This document shows, piece by piece, positions 10,148 through 58,005 of a DNA stretch of 64,000 bases. The notes beneath the pieces were generated by a model. It saw only the letters and a list, made by a program, of their open reading frames with translations, was not told the DNA's origin and ran no database searches. The position numbers and the translations under genes are program-made. Positions within the stretch are counted from its first letter, which is position 1. Each line of letters begins with the position of its first letter. The DNA is from Candidatus Marinacidobacterales bacterium (GTDB lineage Bacteria; Acidobacteriota; Vicinamibacteria; Marinacidobacterales; DATDRI01): the NCBI GenBank assembly GCA_965226495.1, contig OZ245365.1, forward strand, positions 6,176,001 to 6,240,000, in the 5' to 3' direction.

Positions 10148-10202
10148 CTCCTTCCCTTCATCTCACCTTGCCAACTTCCCGGTAGGGAACTACTCTTCCG
10201 GT

Positions 10203-11936: not shown

Positions 11937-11948
11937 ACAGGCGGGCTA

Positions 11949-40924: not shown

Positions 40925-40935
40925 ATCGGAAGTGA

Positions 40936-42261
40936 CTAATTGCTGCCCGCGATCTCGGCCAGTGCTTCGTAGAAGATCCGGATCCCTTTCCCCATATCCG
41001 TAATCGGCACGCGCTCCGCGTCCCCGTGCATCGAGCTCACGACGTCGGCCGTCAGGATCAGCGGGGTAAGCCCATAGCTCTTAGCACCTTTGTGGCGGAA
41101 GGCATTCGAGTCCGTGCCATAAGGGATGAGGATGGGAACCACCGTGGCGTCCGGATCGTGCCGGACAATCGCTTTCGCGAGGGCACCATAGAGACCGCCT
41201 TCGTAGGGTGTCACGACGCTGTCATCTGATTCGTAAAGGACTTCCAGCTCGATCTCTGGATCATCTAACCGTCGCCGGATCTCCGCCAACCACTCGTCGG
41301 TCGAGGTTCCAGGGAGGAGCCGACAGTCGAGCGTGGCCTCCGCCACCGACGGAATGACGTTTACCTTCACCGGCTCGCCCACTCCCGAACGCAAAGTGGT
41401 GAGGGAAATGGTCGAGTGCTGAATGGCACGAGTGAACTTGTTTTCTCCGAGGGGTCCCAACTCGGTTCGCAGCTGCTCCAGCAGCGGGACGGGCGAGCTC
41501 GGCAGTGGATGCGATAGGAGTCGAGTCAGCGCTCGCACTAGACGATCGTTGGGGTTTTGCGCGTGGGGCTGCGAACCGTGGCCGGCGACGCCTTCCGCCC
41601 GCACCTTCAACCACACGAGCTTTTTTTCCGCGACCGAGATGCCGAACACGAGCTTTCCGTCGACGAAAAGGTCACGGCTACCAAACCCGCCTTCGTCCAA
41701 GACGTACTCGGGATCGAGCTCTTGGTAGTGATTTTCGATCATCCATCTCGCGCCTAGCTCGCCCCCGATCTCCTCGTCAGCCACCGCCATGAAAATGATG
41801 TCACGGGAGAGTGGAGCTCCGGCGCGTTTGAGGGAGAGAAAGGAGTAAAGATGGATCATGCCAAGGGCCTTCATGTCCATGGCGCCTCGGCCCCAGACGT
41901 AGCCGTCTTTCGAGACGCCGCCGAAAGGATCCACGTCCCAGCGCGTGCGATCGGCAGGCACCACGTCCATGTGGTGGAGCAAGAGAATCGGTTTCCCATG
42001 CCCTGAGCCTGCGAGACGCGCGGTCAGGTTCACTTTGCCCGGGGCCGACTCGTACTGTGTGACTTCGACACCTTCCGCCCTTAGGACTCCGGAAAGAAGC
42101 TCGGCGGCGGTCGTGACCTTTCCGGGGGGGTTGGAGGTATCGATGCGAATGTAGTCTGTGAGGGTTCGGACCGCCTCGTCAGCGGTTTGCTCCCAGTTGA
42201 TCTCTTGAGCCCGGGCGCCAAGAGGGGTCAAGAGAAGCACGAGCGGTAAGAGAGCTCTCAT
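40936..42261 (-). CDS. M20/M25/M40 family metallopeptidase
   Basis: LLHHMDVVPA, WGRGAMDMK, ADEEIGG, DEGG, GTD, HGDAER; signal peptide. Confidence 0.95.
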   Translation of the reverse strand: MRALLPLVLLLTPLGARAQEINWEQTADEAVRTLTDYIRIDTSNPPGKVTTAAELLSGVLRAEGVEVTQYESAPGKVNLTARLAGSGHGKPILLLHHMDVVPADRTRWDVDPFGGVSKDGYVWGRGAMDMKALGMIHLYSFLSLKRAGAPLSRDIIFMAVADEEIGGELGARWMIENHYQELDPEYVLDEGGFGSRDLFVDGKLVFGISVAEKKLVWLKVRAEGVAGHGSQPHAQNPNDRLVRALTRLLSHPLPSSPVPLLEQLRTELGPLGENKFTRAIQHSTISLTTLRSGVGEPVKVNVIPSVAEATLDCRLLPGTSTDEWLAEIRRRLDDPEIELEVLYESDDSVVTPYEGGLYGALAKAIVRHDPDATVVPILIPYGTDSNAFRHKGAKSYGLTPLILTADVVSSMHGDAERVPITDMGKGIRIFYEALAEIAGSN

Positions 42262-42473
42262 GGTCGTCACCTGTGAGTCTTGGCTTGCAGCTGTCCGCCT
42301 TCGTTCGCCGTATTGCTCCCGCAAACTTCGGCGGACAACCTTCGCCCCAATCCAAAGGCTGGCTTGTCAACCGAAGCCCAGCGGTTTTGATCACTGGGCG
42401 AAGGTTGGCGGATGGTGTAGTTTGGAGCTATCCGGTCTCGGCTGGATTCCATAAAAAACAGGGAATTTACAGG

Positions 42474-42569
42474 TGTGCCTTCTATTTATTCATCCGCGCC
42501 GACCCGAACCTGATCGGTCTCCGATCTGCCGGGACTATGCCTGCATGATTTCGTCGTTTGTTCGCGCTC
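42474..42569 (+). mobile_element. Left-end fragment of an integrase-core (rve) element
   Basis: TGTGCCTTCTATTTATT..ATGATTTCGTCG matches 55045-55140 and the reverse complement of 48616-48730. Confidence 0.75.
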
Positions 42570-42628
42570 GGCCCTGGGCACGGCCGCAAACACAGACTCT
42601 AAGTTGCTGATTTATGGGCTATTTCAAA

Positions 42629-42795
42629 GGGACTTATAACGATTGATTGACAGGCATTTCTCAAACCACCACATCTTGTGCTCTCGCACTTTACTACATG
42701 TTGTTATATGTAGAGGTGGGATGATTGGGGTGTCTTTGATAAGCTGCTCAAACGCAAGGGGTTACTAACATTGTCAATCAATCGTTATAAGTCCC
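42629..42795. mobile_element. 167-bp MITE with 24-bp perfect TIRs and 8-bp target-site duplication (IS1595-like)
   Basis: GGGACTTATAACGATTGATTGACA / TGTCAATCAATCGTTATAAGTCCC; ATTTCAAA on both sides. Confidence 0.88.
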
Positions 42796-42885
42796 ATTTC
42801 AAAAGGGCTGAGTTTTGGCACAGGACGGGATGCTCTCAAGCCTTGCCGGATCCTGGTTGATACAAAATCCGAGGCAAGTGAGGGC

Positions 42886-42979
42886 TGTGCTCCGCAAAAA
42901 GTCGATCCGGCGTTGATTGCGCGGGTTAGACCTACCATAGTCGGCTGCTTCTGGCCGGTTTTCTTTTTTGCGGATCACA
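42886..42979. mobile_element. 94-bp MITE-like element (TGTG..CACA ends)
   Basis: TGTGCTCCGCAAAAA / TTTTTGCGGATCACA (14/15 IR); relatives at 45107-45131 and 63703-63758. Confidence 0.65.
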
Positions 42980-43030
42980 ACAGCCAGCGGCCAACGTGGT
43001 CAATACCGGAAAATCAGGTGTTGCCTAGCC

Positions 43031-44446
43031 CTAGCTGAAGTCCACCCCGAAGAACAGCACCGCGATGATGATCGCCGCCACGGCCAGCGGCGACACGAAC
43101 TGAATGAAGAACCGCCACGCTCCATAGTTGAACCACCTGGGTTCTGAGCCATCCACGAGCTCCCGCTCGGTGTAATTGCGCGTCAGGAACCAGCCCGCCG
43201 CGATCGTGATCGCAAATCCCCCGGTCGGGAGCATCCAGTTCGACACGAAGTGGTCGACCATGCCGAACCAGCTCGTCTTGCCGCCGAAGAGCATCTGGCC
43301 GAGCGCGCCGCCGAGTTGGAGCTCGGTGATCGCGCCGACACCACCGAACGACAACGCGGCGAGGACCGTGAAGGCAAACACCGCACCGCCACACAGCAGC
43401 GTCGCCGTGGCCCGCGGCATGTGGTGTTCGTCGATCACGTAGGCAGCGACCACTTCCAGTAGCGACATCGTCGAGGTGAGCGCCGCGAGGGCCACCAGCA
43501 CGTAGAAGAGTGGCCCCAGGAATGCCCCGAACGGGACCTCGGTGAAGAACAGCTGCGGCAGCGAGATGAAGAGCATCCCCACAGTGCCCGTGCCGCTGAC
43601 CTGCTCATCCATACCCGGCACGCTGAAGATCACCGAGAACATGATCACCGTGGCCACGAGTGCGATCAGCGTATCGAGCACGACGATGATCGCCGAGGCT
43701 TTCACGATCGACTGATGCTTTGCGATGTACGAGCCGTACGTCACCATCGCGCCCATGCCGAGCGAGAGCGTGAAGAACGCGTGGCCGAGCGCCTCGAGGA
43801 CGCTCCCCCCATCCAACTCGCCGAAGCGCGGCAGGAAGATGAAGCGGAGCGCCTCACCGGCCCCGGCCATCTCCAAGGCGGAGACGAGCAGCAAGACGAG
43901 GATCCCGAAGAGAATCGGCAGAAAGACACGCGCGATGCGCTCGATGCCCTTTTGGACGCCGAAGTAGACGACCGAGACCGTGGCGATACTGAACCCGAGA
44001 GACAAGCCAAGCTGTAGGCCGCCATTGGCCGCCTGCGCACCGAACAGCTCGCCCATCGAGGCGCCCGCCGGGAATCCACCGACCGACCAGCCCGCGGACT
44101 TGGCGAAGTAGAAGAGCGACCAGCCCGCAATCACCGTGTAGTAGCTGAGCAGCAGAAAGCCGCAGAGCACGCCCCAGAGGCCAACGATGCCCCACGCCGG
44201 CCCGATGGCCTGCTTGAGCGCCCCGACCACGCTCTTCTGCGTCGCTCGCCCGATCAGCAGTTCGGCCATCATGATGGGCAGGCCCACGGCGGCGATGCAC
44301 ACGAGGTACACGAGGACGAAGGCCCCGCCGTTGTTCTCCCACGTGACGAACGGGAACTTCCACAGGTTGCCGAGGCCGATCGCGCTCCCGGTCGCGGCGA
44401 GAATTAAGCCGGTGTTCGAACTCCAATGACCGCGCGGCTCTGACAT
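43031..44446 (-). CDS. Sodium-dependent transporter (NSS/SNF family)
   Basis: GSAIGLGNLWKFP, NGGAFV, AE..IGR, KGIER, FFTLSLGMG, YGSY. Confidence 0.96.
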   Translation of the reverse strand: MSEPRGHWSSNTGLILAATGSAIGLGNLWKFPFVTWENNGGAFVLVYLVCIAAVGLPIMMAELLIGRATQKSVVGALKQAIGPAWGIVGLWGVLCGFLLLSYYTVIAGWSLFYFAKSAGWSVGGFPAGASMGELFGAQAANGGLQLGLSLGFSIATVSVVYFGVQKGIERIARVFLPILFGILVLLLVSALEMAGAGEALRFIFLPRFGELDGGSVLEALGHAFFTLSLGMGAMVTYGSYIAKHQSIVKASAIIVVLDTLIALVATVIMFSVIFSVPGMDEQVSGTGTVGMLFISLPQLFFTEVPFGAFLGPLFYVLVALAALTSTMSLLEVVAAYVIDEHHMPRATATLLCGGAVFAFTVLAALSFGGVGAITELQLGGALGQMLFGGKTSWFGMVDHFVSNWMLPTGGFAITIAAGWFLTRNYTERELVDGSEPRWFNYGAWRFFIQFVSPLAVAAIIIAVLFFGVDFS

Positions 44447-44831
44447 GTGTCGTTCTCCGATCGATGGCGTGGTCTACGGGAGGCGATGCGGCCCCAACAG
44501 ATCCCGGCCCGTGAAGTCTCGCCCAGTAGACGTTACGTAAATACTCTAAAGGATTTCTGTCGGACCAGCGAGCGGCACGGCAGTATCGCGCGTCAGCACG
44601 CTACGGAAAGTCATCCGACCGTGGCGGCCGCCACGCACCTGGGTACTTTCGAGTGAACGAACGATTTCGGTCACTCCTGAACCGCCCCTGGGGCGGTTCA
44701 GTGCCGCCGCTACCCCAAATTCAACATCCGGCGGGACATCCCCCCGCGAGCACGGAGGTGATTACAGCTTTGAAGGTTTTCGAGCTTCTCACAAGTTCTT
44801 GTCAATAGGTGTGTAAAAAAGTTCAGGCAGC

Positions 44832-44997
44832 GGTGCTTCCGCCATTAAGTGTTGGTGAGATGACGCTAAGACTTTACGCTGCATTAAATTACAGCCAAAA
44901 TAGCGCTCGCGACCTTCGCCGCGCGCTAAATGGAGCGTAAGCTCTTTTTTTGCAAAGGGATACGTACACATCACCAACAGCAAACAGCGCAAGCACC
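44832..44997. mobile_element. 166-bp MITE with imperfect GGTGCTT-type TIRs
   Basis: GGTGCTTCCGCCATTAAGTGTTGGTGA vs GGTGCTTGCGCTGTTTGCTGTTGGTGA; inverted second copy at 61836-62002. Confidence 0.75.
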
Positions 44998-45204
44998 TCT
45001 CAAGCACGTTATTGCGTCGGTGGCCCGGCGGCGACAGTGTGCAGAATTTCCACCGCGTCGAAGACGAGTTCGCAGGGCGGCGCTCTCATGGCTGTCTGCC
45101 CGTCGATACGCGATCTTTTTTGCGGATCACAGGCGGATTACACGGACACGAACGGGACGCCGACCAGTAGTTTTCCGCTCAATCTTAACCTCAATCAGAC
45201 TCCT

Positions 45205-45413
45205 CTAGAAAAGGTACTTTAAGTTCAGGCCGACGCCGAACATTTGGATGTCGCCGACCTCAAGGCCGCCCGACACAGGCTCGCTGCCATCCCTGCGAAG
45301 ATTGGGCGGGTGGCTGCGCAGTGGATCCCAGACAATACTGTCGTCGTTTCGAAAAGAATGAAAGTTAACCCAGCGTCCCTTAACCCCGAGCAGTAATACT
45401 TCGGTGAGCGCGT
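45205..45413 (-). pseudogene. C-terminal remnant of an outer-membrane beta-barrel gene
   Basis: Ends MFGVGLNLKYLF*; cut off by the transposon end at ~45414. Confidence 0.45.
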
Positions 45414-45501
45414 TGTGCATCGTCAAAACTGCTCCGCCCACGAAATCAAGGACTTACGCTCCGCTTGAATTCCGGGCCGAAGACGGCGAAACTCCGCCGC
45501 T

Positions 45502-46551
45502 ATGCTCAACGTTGTTGTCTTCCTCGTCTCACTTGGCGTCCGTGCCATTCGGGCGATGTGTCGGCGCCGCGCCGACCTGGTGTTGGAGAACGTCGCTTTG
45601 CGGCAGCAAGTGACGGCGCTGAAGAAAGAGCGCCCACGCCCACCGCTCGACGACACGGAACGGGCTTTCTGGGTTGCCCTTCGAGGTTCGTGGCCCGTGT
45701 GGGCGAGCCGCCTGCTCATCGTCCACGCGGACACCGTAGCCCGTTGGCATCGCGACCGATTCCGACGGTACTGGGCAAATATCTCGCAGCGCCGCCATCC
45801 CGGTCGGCCTCGGATTGATGCCGAGATTCGCCGCCTCGTCCGCACGATGGCGCAAGACGGCTGGGGGGCGCCACGCATCCATGCTGAGCTCACCAAGCTC
45901 GGTTTCATCATCTCCGAGATTACGGTGTCGCGATACCTACCGCGGCATCCCGCGGAGCCCGACCAGCTGAAGCGATGGATGGCTTTCTTGCGCAACCATA
46001 AAGACGATATCGCCGCCATGGATCTGTTCACCGTGCCCACCGCGTCGCTCCGGCTGCTGTACGGCTTCTTCGTCATCGAGCACGGCCGTCGGCACATCGT
46101 TCACTTCAACGCCACCTTCCACCCGACGTCTGCTTGGGTTATTCAGCAACTGCGTGAGGCGTTTCCCTACGACACTGCTCCGAAATATCTCATCTTCGAT
46201 CGCGACTTCATCTTTAGCGCTGCGGTCATCGAGTTCATCAAAGCAACGGGCACAAAACCCGTTCGCACTTCGTTTCGCAGCCCATGGCAAAACGGAACTG
46301 CGGAGCGGTGGGTCGGCAGCTGCCGTCGCGAGCTCCTTGAGCACGTCGTGGTTCTCGGCGCATGTCATCTCATCCGGCTCGTGCAAGCTTACATCAGCTA
46401 CTATCACGAGGACCGTTGCCACTTGGGGCTGAACAAGGACACACCGAGCTTGAGAGCGGTCACGCACCGACCGTCTCCTACGGCGAAAGTAGTCGCACTG
46501 CCGCGAGTCGGTGGATTGCACCATCGATACGAGTGGCGAGAGGCAGCCTGA
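45502..46551 (+). mobile_element. Integrase-core (rve/DDE) transposase, apparently intact
   Basis: LENVALRQQ, GRPRI, WGAPRIHAEL, AMDLFTV, LIFDRD, SPWQNG.AER, GGLHHRY; end motif TGTGCATCGTCAAAA at 45414. Confidence 0.92.
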
Positions 46552-46715
46552 GTCAGCTTGGTCGCTCGCGTTACTCGGCTGGTCGCCGAGAAGTTCGTCC
46601 TCAGCACCTTCCCTCGCGCGCTGACCACGCTCTCCAGCATGTGCTCGAGGGCAGTCCGGGCCTAGAGTCCAGTCCCGGATTAATAATGATGATGGACAGG
46701 CCCTTGGCCCAGTCG

Positions 46716-46775
46716 CTAAGCTGCTGATTTATGGTCTATTTCGAAAGGGCCGAGTTTTGGCACAGGACGGGGTCA
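46716..46775 (-). repeat. 60-bp repeat (IS-end-like), inverted partner of 50705-50764
   Basis: 58/60 identity to the reverse complement of 50705-50764; further copies near 42600-42829 and 55452-55520. Confidence 0.9.
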
Positions 46776-47089
46776 TGGAAAGCGACTCCGGCCACATGGC
46801 TGAAAAACGAGCTGCTCATGGTACTAGTCGGCTGCTAGAGGAACAGGCCGATCCCGCGGCTCGGCTCTCTGACCCAGAAATCCGCCTAACAGCCCTTGAA
46901 GAGCTTGATGAACTCCTTGCCCTCTTCACGGAAGACCAGACTGCTCTCGAACTCCTCCGCCTGAAGGGCGATGGCCTTTCTGCGTCCGGGATTCAGCGCG
47001 AACTCGGCATGGGAAAGACGCAGTACGACACCGTCACCAAGCGGATTCGCCGTCGCCTTGCCAAATACCTATCCGAGGGAGGCCAGTGA
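46757..47089 (+). pseudogene. 5'-truncated sigma-factor-region-4-like HTH protein
   Basis: ALELLRLKGDGLSASGIQRELGMGKTQYDTVTKRIRRRL; the ORF start lies inside the 60-bp repeat; stop overlaps the next start. Confidence 0.6.
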
Positions 47090-47628
47090 CCATGGAGCCA
47101 AAGAAACAGAACCGGACCAAGATTAACCGAGCACTACGAGATTGTCTCCTTGAGGCGTCGGAAGGCGAGCTTCGTGAAACACTCGCCGATACAGGACAGG
47201 ACTTCGATTCGCTAGCGGCTCGTGGCCGTGCTGCTGCGCAGCGAGCCCTCGCTAAACTGCCCGACGCCGCAGATGTTCAAGACCTGCACCGCGGCCTCGG
47301 TGCGATCCTTCAGATGCTTCGCCGACGCGAGCAGCTTTCCGCGGACAAGCTTGCTCAGGAGGCCCGCGTCAACGTTTCTGAGTTGCGCCGCATCGAGCTC
47401 GACCCAACGTTCGACCCGAACCCACGCACTATCTTCCAGCTCGAGCAGTACTTCAAGCTTCCCTCAAGAAGCCTAGTGGTGCTGTCCGGCGCCGTTCACG
47501 TCGACGACAATGTGCGCGAGGAGGTCGTCCGCTTTGCCGCGAGTTCCGGGGACATCTCTGGACTTACGAAGGAGCAGCGCAAGCACCTTAACCGATTCGT
47601 GAAGTTCCTTCGAGAGAACACCGACTGA
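47086..47628 (+). CDS. XRE-family HTH transcriptional regulator with N- and C-terminal extensions
   Basis: LGAILQMLRRREQLSADKLAQEARVNVSELRRIE..PNPRTIFQLEQYFKLP; RBS GAGGGAGG. Confidence 0.85.
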   Translation: MTMEPKKQNRTKINRALRDCLLEASEGELRETLADTGQDFDSLAARGRAAAQRALAKLPDAADVQDLHRGLGAILQMLRRREQLSADKLAQEARVNVSELRRIELDPTFDPNPRTIFQLEQYFKLPSRSLVVLSGAVHVDDNVREEVVRFAASSGDISGLTKEQRKHLNRFVKFLRENTD

Positions 47629-48551
47629 TGAAGAACCGGCCGATAGACCCGTTCGCGGCGCAAGATATTGAGGACCAGGTTGACAAGGTTCTGCGTGGTC
47701 TGGGCAACCCAGAGCCACCTTTGGACCTGCGCGACGTGCGCGAGTTGCTCAAACTCGACCTTCAGTTCTACAGCAGCACGAACACCGGACCGCTGCGCGA
47801 GTTCGTGAGCAAGGTTAAGCTGGGGGCGAAGCAGCTCGCGATGAAGCCCACCCTCATCCTCGACTTGGTCCGCCAGGCAGGCTTGAAGGCCCTTTGGCTT
47901 CCTGACAGAAAGCGCATCCTCATCGACGAAGGTATGCCTGACCTCAAGATGCGGCACACAGAAGGCCATGAAATCACACACAGCATCACGCCGCACCACC
48001 GCCTGTTCTTGTTTGGCGATGACCGCGAGACGTTGCGTACCTCGTGCCACGAGAAGCTCGAGGCGGAGGCGAACTTCGGCTCCGGACAGCTCCTTTTCAT
48101 CCGGGGCCGCTTCGTTGCCGAGGCCCATGACCTTCCCCGAACGCTGGCAACCGTTCGCGCACTGGCCAAGACCTTCGGTAACACCATAACGATGACACTG
48201 TGGCGTCTTGTCGAAGAAGCGCACGATGACGAGCCCCTCTTCGGGGTCATCTCTCCGCACCCGAAGTACCTCTGCGACGACTTCGATCCGAGGACACCGT
48301 GTCGCTACTTCGTCGAATCACCGGCGTTCCGTGAGAGCTTCGGTATCGTCACTGAAGTAGCAGCCTTCGAGGCGATCCAAGGCTACACGTCATGGGCACA
48401 TGGCGGCTCATTGGGCGAGGGAGAAGTTGTCTTCGTCAGTCGTGACGATGAACGCCATCGCTTTCACATGGAGACGTTCTTCAACCGTCACGAAGCACTC
48501 ACTCTTGGCGTCTATCTCGGTCCCGTTTGTTCACACGTGGTCGTGCCTTGA
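47628..48551 (+). CDS. ImmA/IrrE-family zinc metallopeptidase
   Basis: PPLDL, RILID, RHTEGHEITH (HExxH), EAEANFGSGQLLF, LAKTFG; TGATG coupling. Confidence 0.88.
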   Translation: MKNRPIDPFAAQDIEDQVDKVLRGLGNPEPPLDLRDVRELLKLDLQFYSSTNTGPLREFVSKVKLGAKQLAMKPTLILDLVRQAGLKALWLPDRKRILIDEGMPDLKMRHTEGHEITHSITPHHRLFLFGDDRETLRTSCHEKLEAEANFGSGQLLFIRGRFVAEAHDLPRTLATVRALAKTFGNTITMTLWRLVEEAHDDEPLFGVISPHPKYLCDDFDPRTPCRYFVESPAFRESFGIVTEVAAFEAIQGYTSWAHGGSLGEGEVVFVSRDDERHRFHMETFFNRHEALTLGVYLGPVCSHVVVP

Positions 48552-48615
48552 AATCGTATTGGCCGATGTCCGGCACCTCCTTGTTTGCGGGCAGAGGGAA
48601 GTAGAACGCAACGCT

Positions 48616-48730
48616 AGCCTTGAAGGCAGAGACGAGAGCGCGAACAAACAACGAATTCATGCCGGCATGGTGCCGGCAGACCGGAGACTAATCAAGTTCG
48701 GTGCGCGCGGATGAATAAATAGAAGGCACA
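48616..48730 (-). mobile_element. rve-element left-end scar between the peptidase and the Ubl gene
   Basis: Reverse-complement match to 55045-55160 and 42474-42569. Confidence 0.8.
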
Positions 48731-48801
48731 GGATTTCAAGGAATATCAATCCGAACACTGGATCGAGGAACTTGAAAAGACGATTCAAAGGAGGGTTTCC
48801 A

Positions 48802-49059
48802 ATGACCAAACCTGACACCGACAAAGGCTTCGACATCATCGTCAACGGCACAAACTATCCCGTCCCCAACGACGAGGTCTCATTCGATCAAGTCGTCGAT
48901 CTCGCGTATCCCAACGGAGGTCGAGGTCCACTGATCAAGTATACGGTGGATTTTTACAACGGCGCCGGTCGGCCACCGGAAGGCAAGCTGACCGCAGGCC
49001 AGGAAGCCAAAATCAAAGACGGGACCGTGTTCAATGTCACGCGCACTGATCGCTCGTAA
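48802..49059 (+). CDS. Ubiquitin-like protein (single multi-ubiquitin-type domain)
   Basis: IIVNG..VSFDQVV.LAY..YTV.F..G.L..G....IKDGTVFNVT.TDRS; RBS AAGGAGG. Confidence 0.82.
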   Translation: MTKPDTDKGFDIIVNGTNYPVPNDEVSFDQVVDLAYPNGGRGPLIKYTVDFYNGAGRPPEGKLTAGQEAKIKDGTVFNVTRTDRS

Positions 49060-50230
49060 TGCGGATCTGCGAAGACTCGAGGAAGAGGGTTACACGCTTC
49101 GCATCGTTGACGACGCGTATCTCTTGATCGAGAACGTCCCGTATGTCACGGCTCAAGGCGATGTCCAGGAAGGCACCTTGGTCATGGAACTAACTTTGAG
49201 TGGAGATCGCACGGTCCAACCAACCACCCATGTCGCCCGCTGGACCGGCGAGTTTCCTTACGAAGCCAGCGGCGACAAGCTCCTTGCGTTGATTCGCGAA
49301 GATGCAACAAAAGGTTTGCTCTCCGAATCCATTCCGCCCGTGTACCAGCTTTCGGCCAAGCCTGACAGGGGCTATAAAAACTACCACCACAAGGTAACTA
49401 CCTATGTAGACATACTCAGCCGTGAGGCTCGTTGCATCTCCTCCGATTCGACGGCCCAACAGTGGAAGGTCGTTGCCGACCGCGACGACGCCGACAGCGT
49501 CTTTCTCTTTGCGGACACCGCATCCGCCCGGCAGAACACTGCCGACCTCGCCCGAAAGCTCCAGCACGAGCAAGTAGCCATCGTCGGTGTAGGTGGTACT
49601 GGCTCCTATATCCTCGACTTGATTGCGAAGACATGGGTGCGCGAAATCCATCTCTTCGACGACGACCGATTTCTCCAACACAACGCATTCCGGTCGCCCG
49701 GCCCCTTCTCCCGAGACGAACTCGAAGGAGGACCGTTCAAGTCGATATTTCATGCCGAGAGATACTCGCGCATGCGCAAGGCACTCATCGCATCCACCAC
49801 ATGCATTGACGAGACCAACGTCCAGCAATTAGGCGTATTCGACACGGTTTTTCTCTGTATGGACGGGCATCCGATCAAGGCTCAGATCCTAGAGACCTGC
49901 ATGGCCCACGACACCTTACTCATCGACGTCGGTATGGGCCTGTACCGCGTAAACGACTCGATCGCAGGCGTCATCCGGACAACCACCTTCTGCCCGGAAC
50001 ACCACCACCACGCCGAGGCCTGCATAGACCTGGCCGGCGACGATGCGCCAGGCGAGTACGAGCGGAATGCCCAGCTTGCCGAGCTGAATGCGCTGAACGC
50101 CGCGCTCGCTGTCATCAAGTGGAAGAAAGCAAGGGGCTTCTACAACGACCTAACACGGGAACTCAACAGCGAATACGTCATTGACGGCGACAAGCTCATC
50201 AACTCCTACTGCCTAGACGAACCCTCGTGA
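49034..50230 (+). CDS. DUF6791-like N-terminal domain fused to ThiF/E1-like adenylyltransferase
   Basis: VAIVGVGGTGSYILD, IHLFDDD.F.QHN.FR, FLCMD, IDVGMG, Y..N.Q.AELNALNA. Confidence 0.9.
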   Translation: MSRALIARNADLRRLEEEGYTLRIVDDAYLLIENVPYVTAQGDVQEGTLVMELTLSGDRTVQPTTHVARWTGEFPYEASGDKLLALIREDATKGLLSESIPPVYQLSAKPDRGYKNYHHKVTTYVDILSREARCISSDSTAQQWKVVADRDDADSVFLFADTASARQNTADLARKLQHEQVAIVGVGGTGSYILDLIAKTWVREIHLFDDDRFLQHNAFRSPGPFSRDELEGGPFKSIFHAERYSRMRKALIASTTCIDETNVQQLGVFDTVFLCMDGHPIKAQILETCMAHDTLLIDVGMGLYRVNDSIAGVIRTTTFCPEHHHHAEACIDLAGDDAPGEYERNAQLAELNALNAALAVIKWKKARGFYNDLTRELNSEYVIDGDKLINSYCLDEPS

Positions 50231-50674
50231 AGCTGCGCCAAGTCACGCCGGAATTCGTGGACGAGATCCCGCGAGAGTTAGACCCAGGCAAGCTTTATGT
50301 CTGTTGTCGATACCGTGCGGTCAAGCACCTGTGTGCGTGTGGCTGCGGTGCTGAGATCAACACCCCGTTACATCCCACCGGCTGGACGCTTACGTGCGAC
50401 GGCGTTTCAGTCAGCTTGTCACCGTCCATCGGCAATTGGAGTGAGAAGTGCCAATCCCACCTGGATCATTAACAACAAAATCCAATGGGAACCAAAGTAT
50501 CCAAGACACAAAATTCTGCAAACCAGAAGAGCGCGGGACTTGGAACTGGAACAGTATTTCAGCGCCAATACCAAGCCCGAAACGGGTCACTTTGAGCCGA
50601 AACGGCTCCTCATTTTGACGTCGATGCGACGCTGTCTCACACGAATCTGGCACTGGATCTTGCGTCGTCGCTAG
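50227..50674 (+). pseudogene. DUF6527-like Cys/His metal-binding protein, frameshifted at ~50461
   Basis: HLCACGCG...TPL..W..SLSPSIGNW..CQSH, then continues WIINNKIQW in another frame. Confidence 0.82.
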
Positions 50675-50704
50675 CCTTGGTCGCTACTCCCTGACCGAGG
50701 GAGT

Positions 50705-50775
50705 TGACCCCGTCCTGTGCCAAAACTCGGCCCTTTTGAAATAGACCACAAATCAGCAGCTTAGACGCCCTTGGA
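50705..50775 (+). repeat. IS-end-like repeat copy
   Basis: TGACCCCGTCCTGTGCCAAAACTC..CTTAGACGCCCTTGGA. Confidence 0.9.
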
Positions 50776-50981
50776 TGATGGTGGCGCTCTCCATAATATA
50801 GATGAACTCGACGATGGCCCGTCGCGCGGGTCTTAGAGTGCGTTTGTATTCTTGGACACGACGCGCAGACCTACCCGCCAGGTCCGCCCGTTGCGGACGC
50901 ATTCCGGGCCGACTTCGAAGCTGAGAAGGAAAGGCTTGCGCGAGAGCTCGGGCCCGCGCCGCCCACCTAGGGTGGCCGTCG

Positions 50982-51740
50982 CTACCGACGAATGATCTGC
51001 TGCTTCAGGAGCGCGTCGACGGCGACGACGAGATTCTCGAAAGGCTGCTCCGTACTCGGCGCGGGTTGCAGCCGTCCTTCGCGATCGATTAGGTAGTTGG
51101 CGGGGTATCGCGCCGTCGTCTGATAAATCTCGGGGACGTCCCCCTCGATCGTCAGAAGGGGGTAGCTCACCGACAGGACGTTTTCTTCGAAGTCGAGCTG
51201 CGTTTCGAGGTCCTCTGTGGAGAGGCCGAAGACCATGAATCCCTGTTTCTTGCGTTCCTGATAGAGCTTGTCGAGACCCGGCATTTCCTTGCGGCACGGC
51301 GGACACCAGGTCGCCCAAACGTTTACGAGCACGACCTTTCCTCCATGCTCGTCGAGACGATGAGTGTTGCCGTGGATGTCCGCCGTCGAGAAAGGCGGCG
51401 CCTCGACGTCACTGAGCGCCAGATTCCGCGCCTGCGTAGCGCGCTCGACGACGCCTCGAATCGGAAGGAACACGAGACCGAGCGACAAAATGCCGAGCAT
51501 CAGGCCCACCTTGCTCACGGTTGAGAAGGCTCCTTTGCGGTGGTCGGCGAGCGCGAGGACGAGAGTGATGATGCCCGGCAAGGCCATCGCGATCGCGACT
51601 ATGGAGAGACGGAAGACGAAGTCGGCGTCCCTGTCGGCGCTCGCGCGCGTCAGGCTCCGATAGACGAACAGGCCAAGACCCGCTGCCGCAAAGGGCGACG
51701 CGACGCCGGCCCATAGAGTCCGAAAGTACAGCTTCGACAT
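50982..51740 (-). CDS. TlpA-family thiol-disulfide oxidoreductase with N-terminal TM helices
   Basis: GKVVLVNVWATWCPPCRKEMP, YP.NYLIDREG. Confidence 0.93.
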   Translation of the reverse strand: MSKLYFRTLWAGVASPFAAAGLGLFVYRSLTRASADRDADFVFRLSIVAIAMALPGIITLVLALADHRKGAFSTVSKVGLMLGILSLGLVFLPIRGVVERATQARNLALSDVEAPPFSTADIHGNTHRLDEHGGKVVLVNVWATWCPPCRKEMPGLDKLYQERKKQGFMVFGLSTEDLETQLDFEENVLSVSYPLLTIEGDVPEIYQTTARYPANYLIDREGRLQPAPSTEQPFENLVVAVDALLKQQIIRR

Positions 51741-51980
51741 AACGAAGCCATTCTAGCGTGAGACGGTTCCGTAGCGTGCTAGGGTATTGTCAGGTGCTAT
51801 CAAGTTGAGACGGCGACTGACACAATGAGCCGATGAACAGCCAGCCATCCCGCTACCACATTAATAAGGGGCAATGCCGTTCGCCGAATGATGGAGGCCA
51901 AAAGCGAGCGTGGCAGTAGCCGCGGGTTGGCTTTACAGGCGTGGCCTACCTTAAAGCGTTGCGACGAGGGCGCGTTGCTA

Positions 51981-52387
51981 GCCGGTCTTGAGTTCGTTTG
52001 TGTTTTTGGACACGACGGCGATGAGCCTTCGGTGCCAAGCCAGAAGGGTTTCCGGTGTGACGATACCGGCGACTTCTGCCAAGAGTTTCCGGCCAAGCGC
52101 CTTACCCTTTACCGCGAGCCGACGTCGCTCGTCGTCTGTGAGACGAAGCTTCCTCCCGCAAAGCCGAGCTTTGAGGATTTTGTTCTCCTCGAGCAAGTAG
52201 ACGATAGCGGCCTGGTGGTCACGCTGGAGCCAACCAGCGATGGCGACGACCAACAAGGTCAAGGGCTGGACCGGCGTGCTCATGACCGAGGATTCTAGCT
52301 CCCATTGGCCAATCAAACGTAGATACGTCTATTACGAAACGTCCGGGCGAGCCGGTCTTGAGTTCGTTTGTGTTTTTGGACACGACG
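51981..52387 (-). mobile_element. rve-transposase N-terminal remnant flanked by 37-bp direct repeats
   Basis: YLLEENKILK..RLTDDERRRLAVKGKALGR..VTPETLLAWHR; GCCGGTCTTGAGTTCGTTTGTGTTTTTGGACACGACG at 51981 and 52351. Confidence 0.8.
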
Positions 52388-52401
52388 CCCTACCGCGGTC
52401 C

Positions 52402-52833
52402 TCAGACTTGGAAGCTACCATGCTGGGCGCGACCCCGAACTAACTTTCGAATGTGTCGCTTGTCGTAGTATCGTCCGATACCGATACCAGGACAGTGCTC
52501 TCGCGCCGTGTTCCACTGTGAACGAGTAGCGATTGGCGAGTCTTTGCCCGGCGTGAAGGGGAAGTTCCGGCACTGCGTCGGCCGCACGTCGTAGATCCCA
52601 CAGCCCTTCGTTCTCGGATCCAGGAATACGCAGGTGCCCGAAGCCTCCGATAGAACGCGATGGTCGCCACGTTCCTCAATCGCCCACGCAACCCCAGCCT
52701 TCTGCAACCGACCCACATCGCGCTTGCTCAAAAAGACGCCCTCGACGTCACCCTTGCCGAACATTGACTGTGAGCAGCAGTGACCGCAGTCTGGTTGGCA
52801 CTCGAATCTCAAACCTTTCTTAATCCATCTCAT
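52402..52833 (-). CDS. YkgJ-family cysteine-cluster protein
   Basis: FECQPDCGHCC, CVFLD...CGIYDVRPTQCRNFPF, CPGIG. Confidence 0.9.
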   Translation of the reverse strand: MRWIKKGLRFECQPDCGHCCSQSMFGKGDVEGVFLSKRDVGRLQKAGVAWAIEERGDHRVLSEASGTCVFLDPRTKGCGIYDVRPTQCRNFPFTPGKDSPIATRSQWNTAREHCPGIGIGRYYDKRHIRKLVRGRAQHGSFQV

Positions 52834-52920
52834 TCCATGTACCGCGCAGTCGCCGCTCGGAGCTCCCGACTCGGACCCCTCATTCGTCCTCTTGCGCTCC
52901 GACTGGCATGAACAGCATCC

Positions 52921-53019
52921 AAATAACGAACCGGGGAGTTGCGGCCGGGGGCCGGGCAAAAGAGACAGACTACAGCTAATGCAGTGCGCCCGGCCGTCAG
53001 CTTCAATGGCGCGTTAGAA
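52921..53019 (-). other. Putative degenerate integron attC site
   Basis: Minus strand TTCTAAC..TTGAAGCTGACGGCCGG..CCGGCCGCAACT..GTTATTT, overlapping the upstream stop codon. Confidence 0.55.
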
Positions 53020-53325
53020 TGCCCCCTGCCACATGCCGTCGTCATATGACTCCATCGTGGTTTTTAGCCGCTCATAGAGATGGTCGAGTTCCTTTTGGAG
53101 CTTCTTGTCATCCGTGTGATTTGCTTCCGCCGCGATGTAGCCAATTATCTCATCCAGATCATCCAGAGTCAGCTTAACGATGAGTTTCTTACCTTTGACC
53201 ACCGCCATCCGTAGAGGTCCAGTGACCTCGGGCCCACCCATCGCATGCTCCAGTATGAGACTCCTTTGCCGTGGTGTAATGGCGACTTCAATGGGTTGGC
53301 CGTATTCGATCTTCTGTCGGTTCAT
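53014..53325 (-). CDS. Small acidic hypothetical protein, probable gene cassette
   Basis: 103 aa; LTLDDLDEIIGYIAAEANH; bounded by GTTAGAA and TTCTAAC. Confidence 0.75.
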   Translation of the reverse strand: MNRQKIEYGQPIEVAITPRQRSLILEHAMGGPEVTGPLRMAVVKGKKLIVKLTLDDLDEIIGYIAAEANHTDDKKLQKELDHLYERLKTTMESYDDGMWQGAF

Positions 53326-53440
53326 GATTTGCTGAGACTTCGGGTCGTTCTAACGTTCTACCGCCTAAGTATTGTATCTGGCGCACGGGGAACCAGAAAG
53401 AGGTAGGCAGGTAACTCGCGTTACAGTGATTCCCATGGCG

Positions 53441-53475
53441 TGAACCGCCCCGGGTTTTCCAGGAGACTGTTTTAG
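53441..53475 (-). mobile_element. IS3-family right-end remnant split by IS1380 (continues 54985-55004)
   Basis: TGAACCGCCCCGGGTTTTCCAGGAGACTGTTTTAG + TTGAGTCTCGCCATCT is the reverse complement of 59509-59558. Confidence 0.85.
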
Positions 53476-54984
53476 CCCTAATCGCAAAAAAAAGAGAGCA
53501 AAGTAGCGCGAAAGTATTGACAAAGGAGCCTCTGGGTTTATGTTTGGAGCGTTGCTTCCAAACATAACACCAAACGACCAGAGGCCCCTATAGTGCGCTT
53601 GAAACTATCTCGATTTCGCCGGAACTTCAACAAGGATCTTCCGATCGAGTTCACAGAGCAGAACCTGAGCTCGTTTGGTGGACTGGAACTGTTTTCACGA
53701 TATTTGCGCCGCGTTGAGCTAAGCCGCCGGGTAGGAAAGGCGTGCAGAGGAAAAGGCATTCGGTCGGACTACGGGAGCGTCCGACTGGTTCTGGTGTTGG
53801 TTGGGATACTGCTCGTGGGAGCTCGTCGTCTAGAGCACCTGCAGTATGTCTGTGATGACCCGATGCTGCTTCGCTTCTGTGGGTTGAGAAGACTACCGAG
53901 CCGTCCGACGATCGTGAATTGGCTGAAGCAATTCACGGGAGAGCGGCTCAAGGGCCTATCGGAGTTGAACGGTGTATTGGTCCACGAGCAGATCGAGCGA
54001 TTGGGTCTGAACCGTCTGACGGTAGATATGGACGGCACCGTGGTTCAGGCAGGCAATCAGGTTGGATGGGCGTTTCGAGGATTCAATCCTCATCGCAAGA
54101 AGAATAAAAGTTACTACCCTTTGTTCGCTCACCTGGCTCAGACGGGCCAGATTCTCAAATCCAGAAATCGTCCTGGCAACGTTCACGACTCCAAGGGTGC
54201 CGATGCGTTTCTACGGGAACTGATAGGCGAGCTACGGGGCCAGTTCGGTCGGTCCCGAAAGCTGGAATTCCGCACGGACGCCGCGTTTTTCAACGAAAAG
54301 ATTCTCAAGAGGCTAGAGCGCTCCCGAAGCGAGTTCGCGATCAAGGCTCCGTTCTGGCCGTGGCTCGGCCTAAAGGAGGTCGTCGCTGGGCGCAAGCGAT
54401 GGCACCGCGTGAGTGACGAAATCGACGGCTTCTCCATCAAACACTTCATCGAGCCCTGGAATATCACCGTCCGGATCGCGATCTATCGGAAGCGAGTTCG
54501 ACATCGAACGGCGAAGAACTTCCAGCTCGACCTGTTTTCTCCAGACGACGGCTACTTCGAGTACTCAGCCGTCGCCACCAACAAATCGCTCACCGTCCAA
54601 CGCCTTTGGTACTTCGCTGCTGGGCGAGGCGGCCAAGAGAAAACCTTCGCCGAATTGCGCAGCCAGTTCGCTCTCGACGTCGTGCCCACTAAAAGCTATG
54701 CCGCCAATAGCGCCTGGCAACAGTTGAACGTGCTCGCACACAACCTGTGTCGCAGCTTTCAGCTCGACACCATCGCTGAAACGAAAGGCATCTCTCGAAA
54801 GCGTACATGCACCCATCTGCTGCACACCATCCGCACCATCCCCTTCCGCATCATCAACAAAGCCGGCCGCCTCGTTCGCGTTAGTGGTCGAAACGCGCTC
54901 CGAATGGCCACAAACTCCTCCACTCAGACACTCTTTGAAAGAATCGAACTCGCGCTAGCGTCATGAATTATTGTTCGATTAGGG
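53476..54984 (+). mobile_element. IS1380-family element, transposase 53593-54966
   Basis: SSFGGL.L, VDMDGTV, YYPL, RPGNVH, RTDAAF, RG..EK..ELR, ANSAW; IRs CCCTAATCG/CGATTAGGG; TTAG duplication. Confidence 0.95.
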
Positions 54985-55044
54985 TTAGTTGAGTCTCGCC
55001 ATCTATGTCGAATCCTAGAGGCGTTCTCAAAACTCGCGGAGACC

Positions 55045-55451
55045 TGTGCCTTCTATTTATTGATCCGCGCGCACCGAACTTGATTAGTCTCCGGTCTGCC
55101 GGCACTATGCCTGCATGATTTCGTCGTTGGTTCCCGCTCTCATCTCTGCCTTCAAGGCTCGTCGCGAGCTGGCTCTCGAGAATGTCGCTCTTCGGCAGCA
55201 GCTCGCCGTCCTCCGCCGTTCAGTGAAACGGACGCGGCTCTCGAATGTCGACCGCGAGTTTTGGGTGCTGTTGCGCAGAATCTGGACTGACTGGGAGAGC
55301 GTCCTAGTCATCGTGAAACCTGAGACGGTCATCCGCTGGCACCGTTGTGGGTTCAGACGATATTGGACTTGGAAGAGCCGACGGCGTAGGCCCGGACGAC
55401 CAGGCGTCGCTCCCGAAATACGTGAGCTGATACGGAACATAAGCAGGGCCA
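55045..55451 (+). mobile_element. Truncated rve element (left end plus 5' part of transposase 55115-55451)
   Basis: LENVALRQQL..VKPETVIRWHR.GFR..GRP..IRELIR..SRANP, cut by the repeat at 55452. Confidence 0.85.
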
Positions 55452-55626
55452 ACCCCGTCCTGTGCCAAAACTCGGCCCTCTTGAAATAGACCACAAATCA
55501 GCAGCTTAGACGCCCTTGGAATCCGCCGACCCTTGGGCTGCGTGGCGAGCTACGGGCAGCGGACTTCGCACCCGGAAGTCCCTCATTAGACTGGACTTTA
55601 TCGAGCACAAGAGCGAACGTTCGGTG

Positions 55627-56064
55627 ATGCCGCAGGATACAGGGGTTGGCCGGAACGTCGTTCTGGACGGTTTGGACTTCGCCAGCTTACGGCGGGTCTG
55701 GGAGCAAACGTTTGGGGCTGCTCCCCCACGCTCGCTCTCTCGCGTTTTCATGCGCCGCGTTCTTGCGTACGAACGCCAGTGCCGGACCCTTGGCTGGCAT
55801 TCGGCCACAACCCGGCGCGCTCTGGCTGCCATGGCGAACGGGACGCCAGGCAACGGCGCCGCCGCTCCCGCAGGGTCCGTTTCTGCCGGCACCCATCTCG
55901 TCCGCGAGTGGAATGGCCGGACCTACCAGGTCGAGATACTCGACAACGGCTATCGGTTCGATGGCAAAACCTATCCGTCCCTCACTACCATCGCAAAGCG
56001 AATCACCGGCACCCACTGGTCTGGACCACGCTTTTTCGGTCTGACGCCCAAGCGCAAGGCCTAA
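55627..56064 (+). CDS. DUF2924 domain protein
   Basis: LRRVW..FG..PP..LAYERQ, GTHLVREWNG, YPSLTTIAKRITGTHWSGPRFFGL. Confidence 0.9.
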   Translation: MPQDTGVGRNVVLDGLDFASLRRVWEQTFGAAPPRSLSRVFMRRVLAYERQCRTLGWHSATTRRALAAMANGTPGNGAAAPAGSVSAGTHLVREWNGRTYQVEILDNGYRFDGKTYPSLTTIAKRITGTHWSGPRFFGLTPKRKA

Positions 56065-56065
56065 C

Positions 56066-57726: not shown

Positions 57727-58005
57727 GCCTGCCAGCGCCCACTCCGTGAATCGGCTCGGTTAGCAGCAAGCTGCTCTCCGACACTGGCCTCCACCAATCA
57801 GCCTCAAACTGGCCCAAATTCCCTGTCATGGTTTCCAGACTCGGATAGCTCCTTGTACTTGGACCGTCTGCGGAGTCATCTTCGTTTCCTCCGTAAAACT
57901 CCGCTGGATGAATTCGAGGTTTGGCCAATTCGAATTCCGCTATTCGCCTTCTCCTCAGGCGCGATCTAGGCGTAGAGCGTCTTCTCATTGTCTGCGCGAT
58001 TAAGT

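Follow-up and report, generated by a model that had tools for sequence, protein, structure and literature searches.

The stretch analysed here, called the window throughout, comprises 64,000 nucleotides (nt) of a Candidatus Marinacidobacterales bacterium (GCA_965226495.1, contig OZ245365.1, positions 6,176,001-6,240,000, forward strand), and the system in question is a run of six open reading frames (ORFs), all in one orientation, at 46757-50674 of the window (Table 1). An earlier account made from the letters alone (the sequence-only reading) had placed six co-oriented ORFs there in two coupled blocks, with GTGA and TGATG overlaps in block 1 and overlaps of 26 nt and GTGA in block 2, and every one of them was found at the coordinates it gave. 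Its calls of an XRE helix-turn-helix (HTH) protein, an HExxH peptidase, a ubiquitin-like protein (Ubl), an N-terminal domain fused to ThiF, and a Cys/His protein likewise agree with the Pfam and PADLOC matches. From its domains and gene order, block 2 is assigned to the Type II Bub operons, formerly 6E.2/DUF6527, with the genes bubA, bubBD, and bubE. Block 1 reads as a gene for a CapH-like XRE protein and one for a CapP-like M78 peptidase behind the 3' remnant of a sigma gene of the extracytoplasmic function (ECF) type. Overall, the locus is a partly degraded copy of the characterised Type II Bub family, equipped with sigma-bearing regulators of the CapH/CapP type. The operon class and its linkage to CapH/CapP are already known; what is fresh is the reading of the regulator module as a sigma factor, an anti-sigma factor, and a protease. 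Taken whole, an account that combines a Type II Bub operon, sigma/anti-sigma/protease control, and decay of this particular copy is one that we hold with high confidence as the best explanation.

Table 1. Genes and other features of the locus, in window positions (aa, amino acids)
Feature	Position	Strand	Remarks
ORF1, sigma-like remnant	46757-47089	+	No Pfam or PADLOC family matched
CapH-like XRE-HTH gene	47086-47628	+	180 aa; 178 aa from the ATG at 47092
CapP-like zinc metallopeptidase gene	47628-48551	+	M78/IrrE type; HEITH motif; 307 aa
Conserved 39-nt element, ATGTCCG-N16-SGGCA...GTAG	48566-48604	+	Candidate sigma promoter or CapH operator; motif core 48566-48593
115-nt repeat	48616-48730	+	Between conserved element and bubA
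bubA	48802-49059 (alternative start 48772)	+	85-aa single beta-grasp Ubl, ending ...TDRS
bubBD	49034-50230	+	E2-like DUF6791 and E1 ThiF fusion, 398 aa
bubE	50227-50674	+	DUF6527; frame 0 covers 50227-50472, remainder in +1 frame
Insertion sequence (IS) element	45412-46552	+	rve_3 (IS3-like) transposase ORF 45502-46551; Pfam rve_3 7.4e-9
60-nt repeat, left arm	46716-46775	+	Inner end supplies first codons of ORF1
60-nt repeat, right arm	50705-50764	-	Inverted partner of left arm

The Bub operon was described by Ye et al. (bioRxiv 10.1101/2024.11.21.623953), in a work whose published version (Nat Struct Mol Biol 2026) appears among the references of PMC13373217. In the accessible text of the preprint, BubA is a Ubl, BubBD is an E2-E1 fusion that uses oxyester intermediates, and BubE, the DUF6527 protein, is a C4-zinc Ser/His protease that strips conjugates. 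The sequence-only reading had named the family correctly as the multi-ubiquitin/DUF6791-ThiF/DUF6527 type, since the Pfam trio of Multi_ubiq, DUF6791 with ThiF, and DUF6527 is found here, and its suspicion that the class might already be catalogued is borne out by the published Type II Bub. Its description of the class as poorly characterised is outdated, now that structures and biochemistry have appeared under the Bub name; a literature search on "DUF6791" by itself gave no paper. A metagenome scan for BubBD matched 194 stretches, of which 142 encode relatives, and the loci studied are the best 80. To its nearest relatives among these best 80 of 142, the BubBD of the window is 37-47% identical. 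Synteny of bubA, bubBD, and bubE holds in the 80 loci: bubE lies 3' of bubBD in 73, and the remaining 7 have no more than 169 nt downstream.

Individually, the block 2 products fit this assignment. BubA matches Multi_ubiq (PF14452) at 3.5e-14, and its residues 9-85 match PDB entry 9cd2_A, the multi-ubiquitin protein of E. coli ZDHYS365, at E 5e-8 over the last beta-grasp domain and the C-terminus; the beta-grasp fold of the ORF at 48802, on which the sequence-only reading had staked its proposal, is thus matched in a solved domain. The ATG at 48802 sits behind a good ribosome-binding site, and for this reason we prefer the 85-aa start over the TTG at 48772. Every Type II BubA in our set, the window included, ends in Ser (70/70), preceded by Lys or Arg in 69 of the 70, so that the end in ...TDRS is canonical for the type; Type I BubA is described with a C-terminal Gly (10.1101/2024.11.21.623953, accessible text). 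Written as a pattern, the C-termini of the loci L013-L092 and of the window (49045-49059) read ...T-D/N/G-K/R-S. In BubBD, Pfam finds DUF6791 at residues 10-162 (2.9e-43) and ThiF at residues 171-301 (5.3e-13), and NCBIfam NF004805 matches at 1.6e-130, with 435.7 bits against a cut-off of 352. According to the same preprint, the E. coli protein uses a crossover-loop Tyr (Y342), an E2 Ser (S106) with an invariant Lys and His, and an adenylation Arg (R219), and the window residues S107, R220, and Y342 are the same as these or one residue off. Across an alignment of 68 sequences (67 loci plus the window), H66, S107, R220, and Y342 are invariant (68/68 each) and K109 is present in 66; the window protein also keeps the Gly-rich loop at 185-190, which like these residues is 97-100% conserved, and D209-D211. 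By this mapping, which uses matching position and conservation and no structure, BubBD appears to carry all the catalytic residues. Sequence searches of the PDB with BubBD, and likewise with the CapP-like protein, gave no match. No ORF of the block has a Pfam match to Prok-JAB. The sequence-only reading had noted the lack of a JAB protease and of a separate E2, and both statements hold, but an E2 is nevertheless present as the N-terminal domain of BubBD, and BubE is the deconjugating protease.

If the window copy follows the enzymology of its family, BubBD would adenylate the BubA C-terminus, and BubA would pass as an oxyester from the crossover-loop Tyr (Y342) to the E2 Ser (S107, assisted by K109 and H66). 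BubA would then be joined to target proteins, and BubE, a predicted zinc-finger Ser/His protease, would take the conjugates off again. A rival possibility is that the locus encodes a sulfur-carrier or biosynthetic pathway of the ThiF/MoeB type, in which BubA is a ThiS/MoaD-like carrier and no protein modifier. BubA is indeed a small beta-grasp protein, and the ThiF domain weakly matches NCBIfam ThiF/MoeB entries (E 2e-8 to 2e-4, well under the respective cut-offs). ThiS and MoaD carriers, however, typically end in Gly-Gly, and BubA ends in Ser; moreover, the E1 shares one chain with an E2-like domain whose Ser/Lys/His set is invariant, a dedicated protease gene comes next in the operon, and no thiamine or molybdopterin genes are adjacent. 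Protein conjugates have also been demonstrated for both Bub types, and conjugation by way of oxyester intermediates has been shown in the E. coli and Citrobacter systems (10.1101/2024.11.21.623953, accessible text). We regard a sulfur-carrier role as very improbable.

The third gene of block 2 had been called broken, correctly so, and the cause is a 2-nt deletion after 50460. The bubE product matches Pfam DUF6527 at 3.2e-17 (profile positions 3-52 of 63) and keeps its Cys residues and the SPSIGNW...CQSH motif, with the break falling directly after the His: frame 0 ends in ...CQSHLDH and a stop at 50472, and the +1 frame resumes as WIINNKIQW... and runs to 50674. Across the same point, BubE homologues read ...C-x-S-H-Y-W-I-x-x-N-x-V-x-W.... 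Alleles were compared across contigs from four public runs, each of a different study (X1, X4, X6, and X7); no RNA run was among the public runs listed for the stretch. A TA behind 50460 is present in one contig of X4, one of X6, and two of X7, and the X6 contig is otherwise identical to the window over 50434-50732; with the TA restored, the codons read CAC TAC TGG and BubE is 149 aa long, where homologues have 113-187 aa. The deleted form is found in an X1 contig identical to the window over 50088-50732 and in an X4 contig identical over 50321-50641. X1 may be the source sample of the genome, and independent support for the deleted form therefore comes from X4 only. Since the deletion recurs in X1 and in the independent X4, and the intact form occurs in otherwise identical sequence in X6 and X7, the break is not an assembly error; it is a genuine 2-nt deletion, and related populations carry the intact allele alongside it.

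Turning to block 1, the CapH-like protein has its HTH at residues 71-126 (Pfam HTH_19, 7.8e-5, along with HTH_31 and HTH_3) and matches the PADLOC models HTH_VI at 2.5e-8 and capH at 0.015; searched as a profile against the PDB, it finds only weak XRE/SinR HTH matches, with E of at least 0.007. Its family comprises 120 homologous clusters of about 178-181 aa, whose members carry a conserved N-terminal extension of about 65 residues ahead of the HTH. The CapP-like protein falls just short in Pfam (Peptidase_M78, 2.6e-4, 21.2 bits against a cut-off of 22) and matches PADLOC capP at 2.5e-8, with the HEITH residues H114, E115, and H118 invariant in 5/5 homologues. With an XRE HTH gene and an M78 peptidase gene adjacent, the earlier proposal of a CapH/CapP-type pair stands.

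ORF1 is a different matter. It has 46 homologues in a 5.8-billion-protein collection, counting the window's own 104-aa entry. Of the 45 others, 43 are 177-193 aa long and the remaining two 84 and 146 aa, and two carry sigma-24/ECF-type JGI names. The window protein aligns solely to the last 104 or so residues of these proteins of about 188 aa, in an alignment that begins within an invariant HLDRVMESD motif; family homology starts at about 46775 (MESDS...), and the first six codons derive from the 60-nt repeat at 46716-46775. ORF1 is thus read as the 3' remnant, about 104 of some 188 codons, of an ECF-type sigma gene, retaining the region-4-like half only. The sequence-only reading had seen a sigma-region-4-like HTH, which is right as to the half that remains; what it took for a small region-4 protein is the C-terminal remnant of a longer family. 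The ECF-type layout, with region 2 and region 4 in one protein of about 170-200 aa, is absent from the window copy, and tblastn over the 6.34-Mb genome found neither a second sigma-like copy nor the N-terminal half elsewhere.

How firmly the full-length family can be called a sigma family depends on rather low scores. A full-length homologue matches the SigE-family model TIGR02983 of NCBIfam weakly, at 9.8e-4. The family hidden Markov model (HMM) of ORF1 links to L017-type proteins (E 1e-27), which match TIGR02937 at 8.9e-8, and the sigma protein of locus L090 passes that model outright, with 55.3 bits against a cut-off of 42.9. An AlphaFold2 model of a full-length sigma-like protein has two helical blocks (predicted local distance difference test, pLDDT, 82; predicted template modelling score, pTM, 0.68). 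Compared with known structures by Foldseek, it draws a list made up almost entirely of ECF sigmas (SigH, RpoE, SigL, AlgU, SigW, sigmaE, CnrH, BldN, and SigK), with a best E of 1.5e-3, a probability of 0.94-1.00 for the first ten, and a template modelling (TM) score of about 0.3, which we attribute to a different pose of the two sigma domains. Two results count against the assignment: the Pfam Sigma70_r2 scores of full-length homologues (E 0.014-0.11) stay below the cut-off, and Foldseek returned nothing at E <= 1e-3. The weak sequence scores and the model together suggest that these are diverged ECF-type sigma-like proteins.

The triad recurs in other genomes. A scan of one genome per species with the sigma-like alignment as query gave four loci (L009-L012), in metagenome-assembled genomes labelled Acidobacteria, Syntrophales, delta proteobacterium, and Latescibacterota. 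In all four the order is sigma, CapH-like, CapP-like, with the CapH-like proteins 65-73% and the CapP-like proteins 72-79% identical to those of the window, and in all four an operon for ubiquitin-like machinery lies 3' of the triad. The sequence-only reading had made its case depend on a linkage of the regulators to such operons in other genomes, and linkage is what these four show. Type I Bub follows the triad in L009, L011, and L012; its components in L011 and L012 are Multi_ubiq and Prok-E2_E (fused in L011, separate in L012), JAB-ThiF, and DUF6527, and the L009 cargo was scanned for JAB-ThiF and DUF6527 only. In L010, the cargo behind the high-identity triad (10142-12687) consists of a 97-aa ORF, Metal_CEHH, Prok-JAB, and E1-N with ThiF. 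Counting the window, the high-identity triad is tied to ubiquitin-like operons in 5/5 cases, which fall to Type I Bub, Type II Bub, and the CEHH/JAB/E1-N kind.

A further survey started from the Type II operons themselves. In 40 of the 80 loci, the sequence 5' of bubA extends for 2.5 kb or more; with L015 dropped as a duplicate of L014, 39 loci and their 149 upstream ORFs were scanned against Pfam. An M78 peptidase is encoded upstream in 32 of the 39 (in L039 by tblastn and the family HMM), and 12 of the 39 have both a sigma-like gene and an M78 gene. Nine of these 12 are divergent (L017, L020, L024, L029, L031, L039, L042, L052, and L056; HMM E 1e-18 to 1e-27), and three (L090, L091, and L092) are co-oriented as in the window, with Pfam Sigma70_r2 matches of 2.3e-7 to 5.6e-6; NCBIfam was run on L090 alone among these three. 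L046 has a sigma-like gene with no detectable M78, and L016, L027, and L030, in which a sigma-like gene is present, have too short an upstream region and were not counted. The middle ORF of the sigma triads matches no Pfam family in any of the 10 scanned (of 12 triads), and in 15 of the 20 M78 loci that lack a sigma gene, the peptidase has as its neighbour an XRE HTH protein of the ordinary kind or an HTH-M78 fusion. In L055 (2921-4650), L081 (2037-3760), and L089 (2016-3817), a DarT/Macro-domain pair resembling DarTG lies directly beyond the CapP gene, so that CapH/CapP stand between two defence-type modules.

Much of this linkage has been on record for some time, and the extra regulatory layer that the sequence-only reading called unusual has to be seen in that light. 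In the accessible texts, CapH/CapP beside 6e.2 systems were shown in 2022 (Lau et al., bioRxiv 10.1101/2022.04.27.489752), where a gene of the sigma-70 family is also reported beside capH/capP in 24 cyclic oligonucleotide-based antiphage signalling systems (CBASS); CapH and CapP lie beside 168 of 544 Bub operons (10.1101/2024.11.21.623953); and CapK/CapS form a third regulator pair at Bub operons (PMC13373217). A sigma gene alongside CapH/CapP is therefore both recurrent and noticed earlier. Our literature search found no study of the sigma gene in capH/capP modules, and Table S1 of the Bub or of the CapH/CapP paper may list sigma-associated Bub operons.

What, then, would the sigma gene do? 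The sigma-like and CapH-like proteins of L009, each supplied with its own alignment, are predicted to form a complex, with an ipSAE interface score of 0.82, 0.83, and 0.82; none of 3 controls exceeded 0.00. Among solved complexes, 116 of 157 reach this mark, as do 2 of 215 mismatched pairs, counts that hold here only roughly because we used our own alignments. At least 97% of the contacts agree between the runs, and partner pLDDT is at least 81. The predicted interface sets CapH-like residues 9-62 against sigma residues 19-89 and 132-190. Class I anti-sigma domains are sandwiched between the two halves of their sigma factors, and the predicted geometry matches that arrangement.

A second line of evidence is the conserved element of Table 1. 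The motif ATGTCCG-N16-(C/G)GGCA occurs just 3' of capP in 5/5 triad loci and just 5' of the sigma gene in 4/4 loci that retain the 5' end of that gene, with no further occurrence on either strand of 679 kb of fetched loci; over the whole genome it counts 2, where 2.6 are expected by composition. L010 carries the element twice, at 7940-7978 and 10023-10061. A coding origin, either as a 12-codon ORF or as the tail of CapP, was considered and rejected: the element is in frame with capP in three of the five loci, and in the window and L010 it lies behind the stop and out of frame, for which reason we treat it as DNA. ECF sigmas are usually autoregulated, with a promoter before their own gene and before their target genes, and two blocks 16 nt apart, set ahead of the sigma gene and again ahead of the cargo, would be the layout expected of an autoregulated ECF promoter.

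From these two lines a model can be put together. The N-terminal 60 or so residues of the CapH-like protein would hold the sigma factor as an anti-sigma domain does, the CapP-like M78 peptidase would cleave the CapH-like protein on a damage signal, and the freed sigma would fire the two ATGTCCG-N16-SGGCA promoters, that of its own gene and that of the cargo operon. The triad would then be a soluble, damage-activated sigma/anti-sigma/protease switch driving itself and the ubiquitin-like operon, in effect a positive-control version of the CapH/CapP repressor system. We offer this tentatively, at somewhat less than an even chance; no paper describing such a reading of CapH/CapP was found in our literature search. 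The chief competitor is classical control, in which the CapH-like protein represses through an ATGTCCG...CGGCA operator, CapP cleaves it after damage, the housekeeping sigma transcribes the operon, and the sigma-like gene is an accessory or a passenger. CapH/CapP of CBASS and DdrO/IrrE of Deinococcus work in this way (10.1101/2022.04.27.489752 and PMC13373217, accessible texts), the CapH-like protein does have an XRE HTH, the element is an imperfect inverted repeat, and 20 of the 32 M78-bearing loci do without a sigma gene, three-quarters of them with an ordinary XRE HTH or HTH-M78 protein as noted above. Yet several phyla retain the sigma-like gene, at 50-87% identity and always at the head of the module, along with capH and capP. 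The N-terminal extension of about 65 residues, absent from canonical CapH, is the very part predicted to contact the sigma. The fixed 16-nt spacing, present ahead of the sigma gene as well as ahead of the cargo, fits the autoregulated ECF layout, and promoters of the sigma-70 type occur in 46500-51000 at the level of chance (1 found, 1.3 expected), which is weak evidence. All told, classical control strikes us as unlikely, if well short of negligible.

Several points weigh against the sigma/anti-sigma/protease switch and should be set out together. The CapH-like protein retains an HTH that a pure anti-sigma factor would not need. The inverted-repeat shape of the element (TGTCCG ... CGGCA, imperfect) means that it could be a CapH operator, as classical control would have it. 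Sigma/anti-sigma complexes have already been solved, and the high ipSAE may therefore partly reflect likeness to them. Compared profile to profile, the CapH-like family and the middle genes of the two other triad types gave probabilities of 0.3% and 1.3%; these are not significant, and a common origin of the triad middle genes is hence not established. As to a role of the operon in defence, a 2026 paper (PMC13373217, accessible text) states that protection by Bub against phage has not been demonstrated.

Whatever the mode of control, the copy in the window has suffered. Its sigma gene is cut at the 60-nt repeat, with the 5' half and the gene's own promoter-like element lost. The cargo leader, from the conserved element to bubA, has grown from about 83 to 198 nt through the 115-nt repeat, where other loci have about 22-110 nt. 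The cargo-side element, capH, capP, bubA, and bubBD are intact. The sigma truncation, the leader repeat, and the bubE deletion together indicate that this copy is probably silent or deregulated and not a working inducible system. The contrary proposal is a fully working inducible Ubl-conjugation defence system, in which the short ORF1 really does encode a small regulator of the region-4 kind and a sequencing error explains the bubE break. It can draw on the intact genes with all their conserved residues and on the intact cargo-side element. It must, however, contend with 43 of 45 ORF1 homologues at 177-193 aa matched by the window only in their C-terminal half, with a start of ORF1 that is repeat sequence, with a bubE deletion that recurs in X1 and X4 contigs beside an intact allele in X6 and X7, and with a leader interrupted by the 115-nt repeat. 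The ORF1 length, the repeat start, and the bubE alleles have largely refuted it already, and we rate it improbable. The inducible system of the sequence-only reading is to be qualified in the same sense, the sigma remnant being truncated at its 5' end and the copy probably no longer intact in that function. Against outright silence, BubA and BubBD are intact and could still be transcribed from an unrecognised promoter or by read-through from the flanking repeat. Disrupted sigma genes are not confined to the window: 3 of the 21 loci that have one (the window, L009-L012, 13 found by the family HMM, and L090-L092) carry it in broken form, namely the window, L012, and L042. In L012 the gene is split by a DDE transposase insertion (5932-6198, 6260-7792, and 7986-8435), and in L042 (4495-5114) it lies in two overlapping frames, by a frameshift or possibly an assembly error. 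If the switch model is true, these broken sigma genes could reflect selection against the system firing.

The sequence-only reading had rightly placed the locus in a mobile island; the rve_3 IS lies upstream, transposases and a serine recombinase lie downstream, and the surroundings are rich in repeats. The block 46776-50704 is bracketed by inverted 60-nt copies that are 97% complementary. The 60-nt unit, CTAAGCTGCTG...GGCACAGGACGGGG, recurs in the window at 55452-55509 and 42796-42829 and in the genome gives 33 blastn matches, 25 of at least 45 nt, in both orientations. Nearly all the copies lie in genome 6.2188-6.3375 Mb and 0-24 kb; if the single contig is circular, this amounts to about 143 kb. 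An outlying copy at 1,352,508 abuts an apparent tRNA gene at its 3' end. Past ...GGCACAGGACGGGG, each copy runs into unique sequence, and on the other side a few recurrent classes extend for 60 to more than 1,400 nt; both arms face the Bub block with the unique side. The unit is read as the terminus of flanking repeated modules, one of which cut the sigma gene. No target-site duplication was found around the 60-nt pair, and the unit was rejected as a terminal repeat of the Tn3 or IS3 type (judged by consensus ends) on the grounds that strand and termini do not fit. Folded as single-stranded DNA, the 60-nt repeat has a z-score of -0.20, no special structure.

The 115-nt repeat, which the sequence-only reading had noted as a scar at 48616-48730, is indeed a distinct segment at that place, but its nature is that of a repeat with 8 full-length copies in the genome, the window's included, at 91-96% identity and in the same island. 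It ends in the motif GGCACAGG, as does the 60-nt unit; other copies in the window are at 55043-55159 (minus strand) and 42474-42569 (minus strand, partial). Four public runs show a depth spike and loose contig ends at 48616 and 48730, and the contig depths for both repeats run into the thousands, which implies that they are abundant well beyond the window's genome. An Rfam scan of 40000-58000 at E <= 0.1 gave no match, so these are not known RNA families. The rve_3 IS has about 8 long genome copies at 78-81% identity, each covering the 45412-46552 span. Segments of at least 1.4-1.6 kb beside 60-nt units are duplicated at 96% identity in the island, in genome coordinates about 20.6-22.0 kb against 6,272-6,273 kb and 6,231,450 against 6,294,180. 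The island is a mosaic of segmental repeats. Downstream of the Bub block come a redoxin, a CxxCxxCC protein, two DDE transposases, and DUF2924 with a serine recombinase; the last two occupy 55516-57726, and the Resolvase match begins only at profile position 80 of 145, possibly by N-terminal truncation. At E <= 1e-40, no member of the CapP-like family turned up in a sample of 400 other genomes of the phylum, and full-length BubBD was present in 1 of 40 relatives (G034, 43% identity), with six others matching the ThiF part only; on these two counts the locus is read as an import.

The operon itself is one further, damaged copy of a family with published enzymology and adds little. The regulator module, by contrast, yields a concrete model, open to test, of what turns on a subset of Bub operons, namely a private sigma factor that would be released by proteolysis of an HTH-bearing anti-sigma factor and would act at a defined candidate promoter, and this model may extend to the 24 CBASS systems with a sigma gene beside capH/capP. 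The population data catch a defence-type operon in mid-decay, with its activator truncated, its leader interrupted by a repeat, and a loss-of-function bubE allele present beside an intact one, and this bears on the cost of carrying such systems. The sigma/anti-sigma/protease reading is the one lead worth following, and on an intact relative rather than on the window copy.

Set beside known systems, block 2 matches the Type II Bub operon of E. coli ZDHYS365 in its three genes, their order, and their Multi_ubiq, DUF6791+ThiF, and DUF6527 families, with the E2 Ser/Lys/His, the crossover Tyr, and the adenylation Arg at matching positions. It also shares with Type II Bub the lack of a JAB peptidase, the mobile region, and the association with CapH/CapP. 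It departs from ZDHYS365 in the frameshifted bubE, in regulators that are co-oriented and accompanied by a sigma remnant, and in a BubA of one beta-grasp domain and 85 aa, against 222 residues in the solved protein and 41-330 aa among homologues. Unlike Type I Bub (BubAB, BubCD, and BubE) and Bil, the window cargo has neither a JAB domain nor an E2 of the Prok-E2_E family, its E2 being fused to the E1; and yet it is Type I Bub that the high-identity triad of the window type precedes in L009, L011, and L012.

For the regulators, CapH and CapP of CBASS, an HTH repressor and an M78 peptidase activated by single-stranded DNA, and DdrO/IrrE of Deinococcus likewise present adjacent XRE-HTH and M78 HExxH genes directly upstream of a defence-type operon. 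The CapH-like protein of the window, at 180 aa, has some 65 extra N-terminal residues relative to E. coli CapH (C-terminal domain 67-107; 10.1101/2022.04.27.489752, accessible text), and the CapP-like protein, at 307 aa, differs from CBASS CapP in its borderline Pfam M78 score; in contrast to the CBASS arrangement, the regulator genes are co-oriented with the cargo and a sigma-like gene leads the module. A third comparison is with sigmaE-RseA, SigW-RsiW, and AlgU-MucA, pairs of an ECF sigma and a class I anti-sigma factor in which the sigma is freed by regulated proteolysis. The triad resembles them in a predicted two-domain sigma-like fold, in partner helices predicted to lie between the region-2-like and region-4-like halves, in a protease gene in the operon, and in a motif before the sigma gene that suggests autoregulation. 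It differs from them in that the putative anti-sigma factor is cytoplasmic and has an HTH of its own, in that a soluble M78 peptidase would do the cutting in place of membrane site-1 and site-2 proteases, and in that the window-type family, known here from sequence and models, lies below the ECF family cut-offs in sequence similarity.

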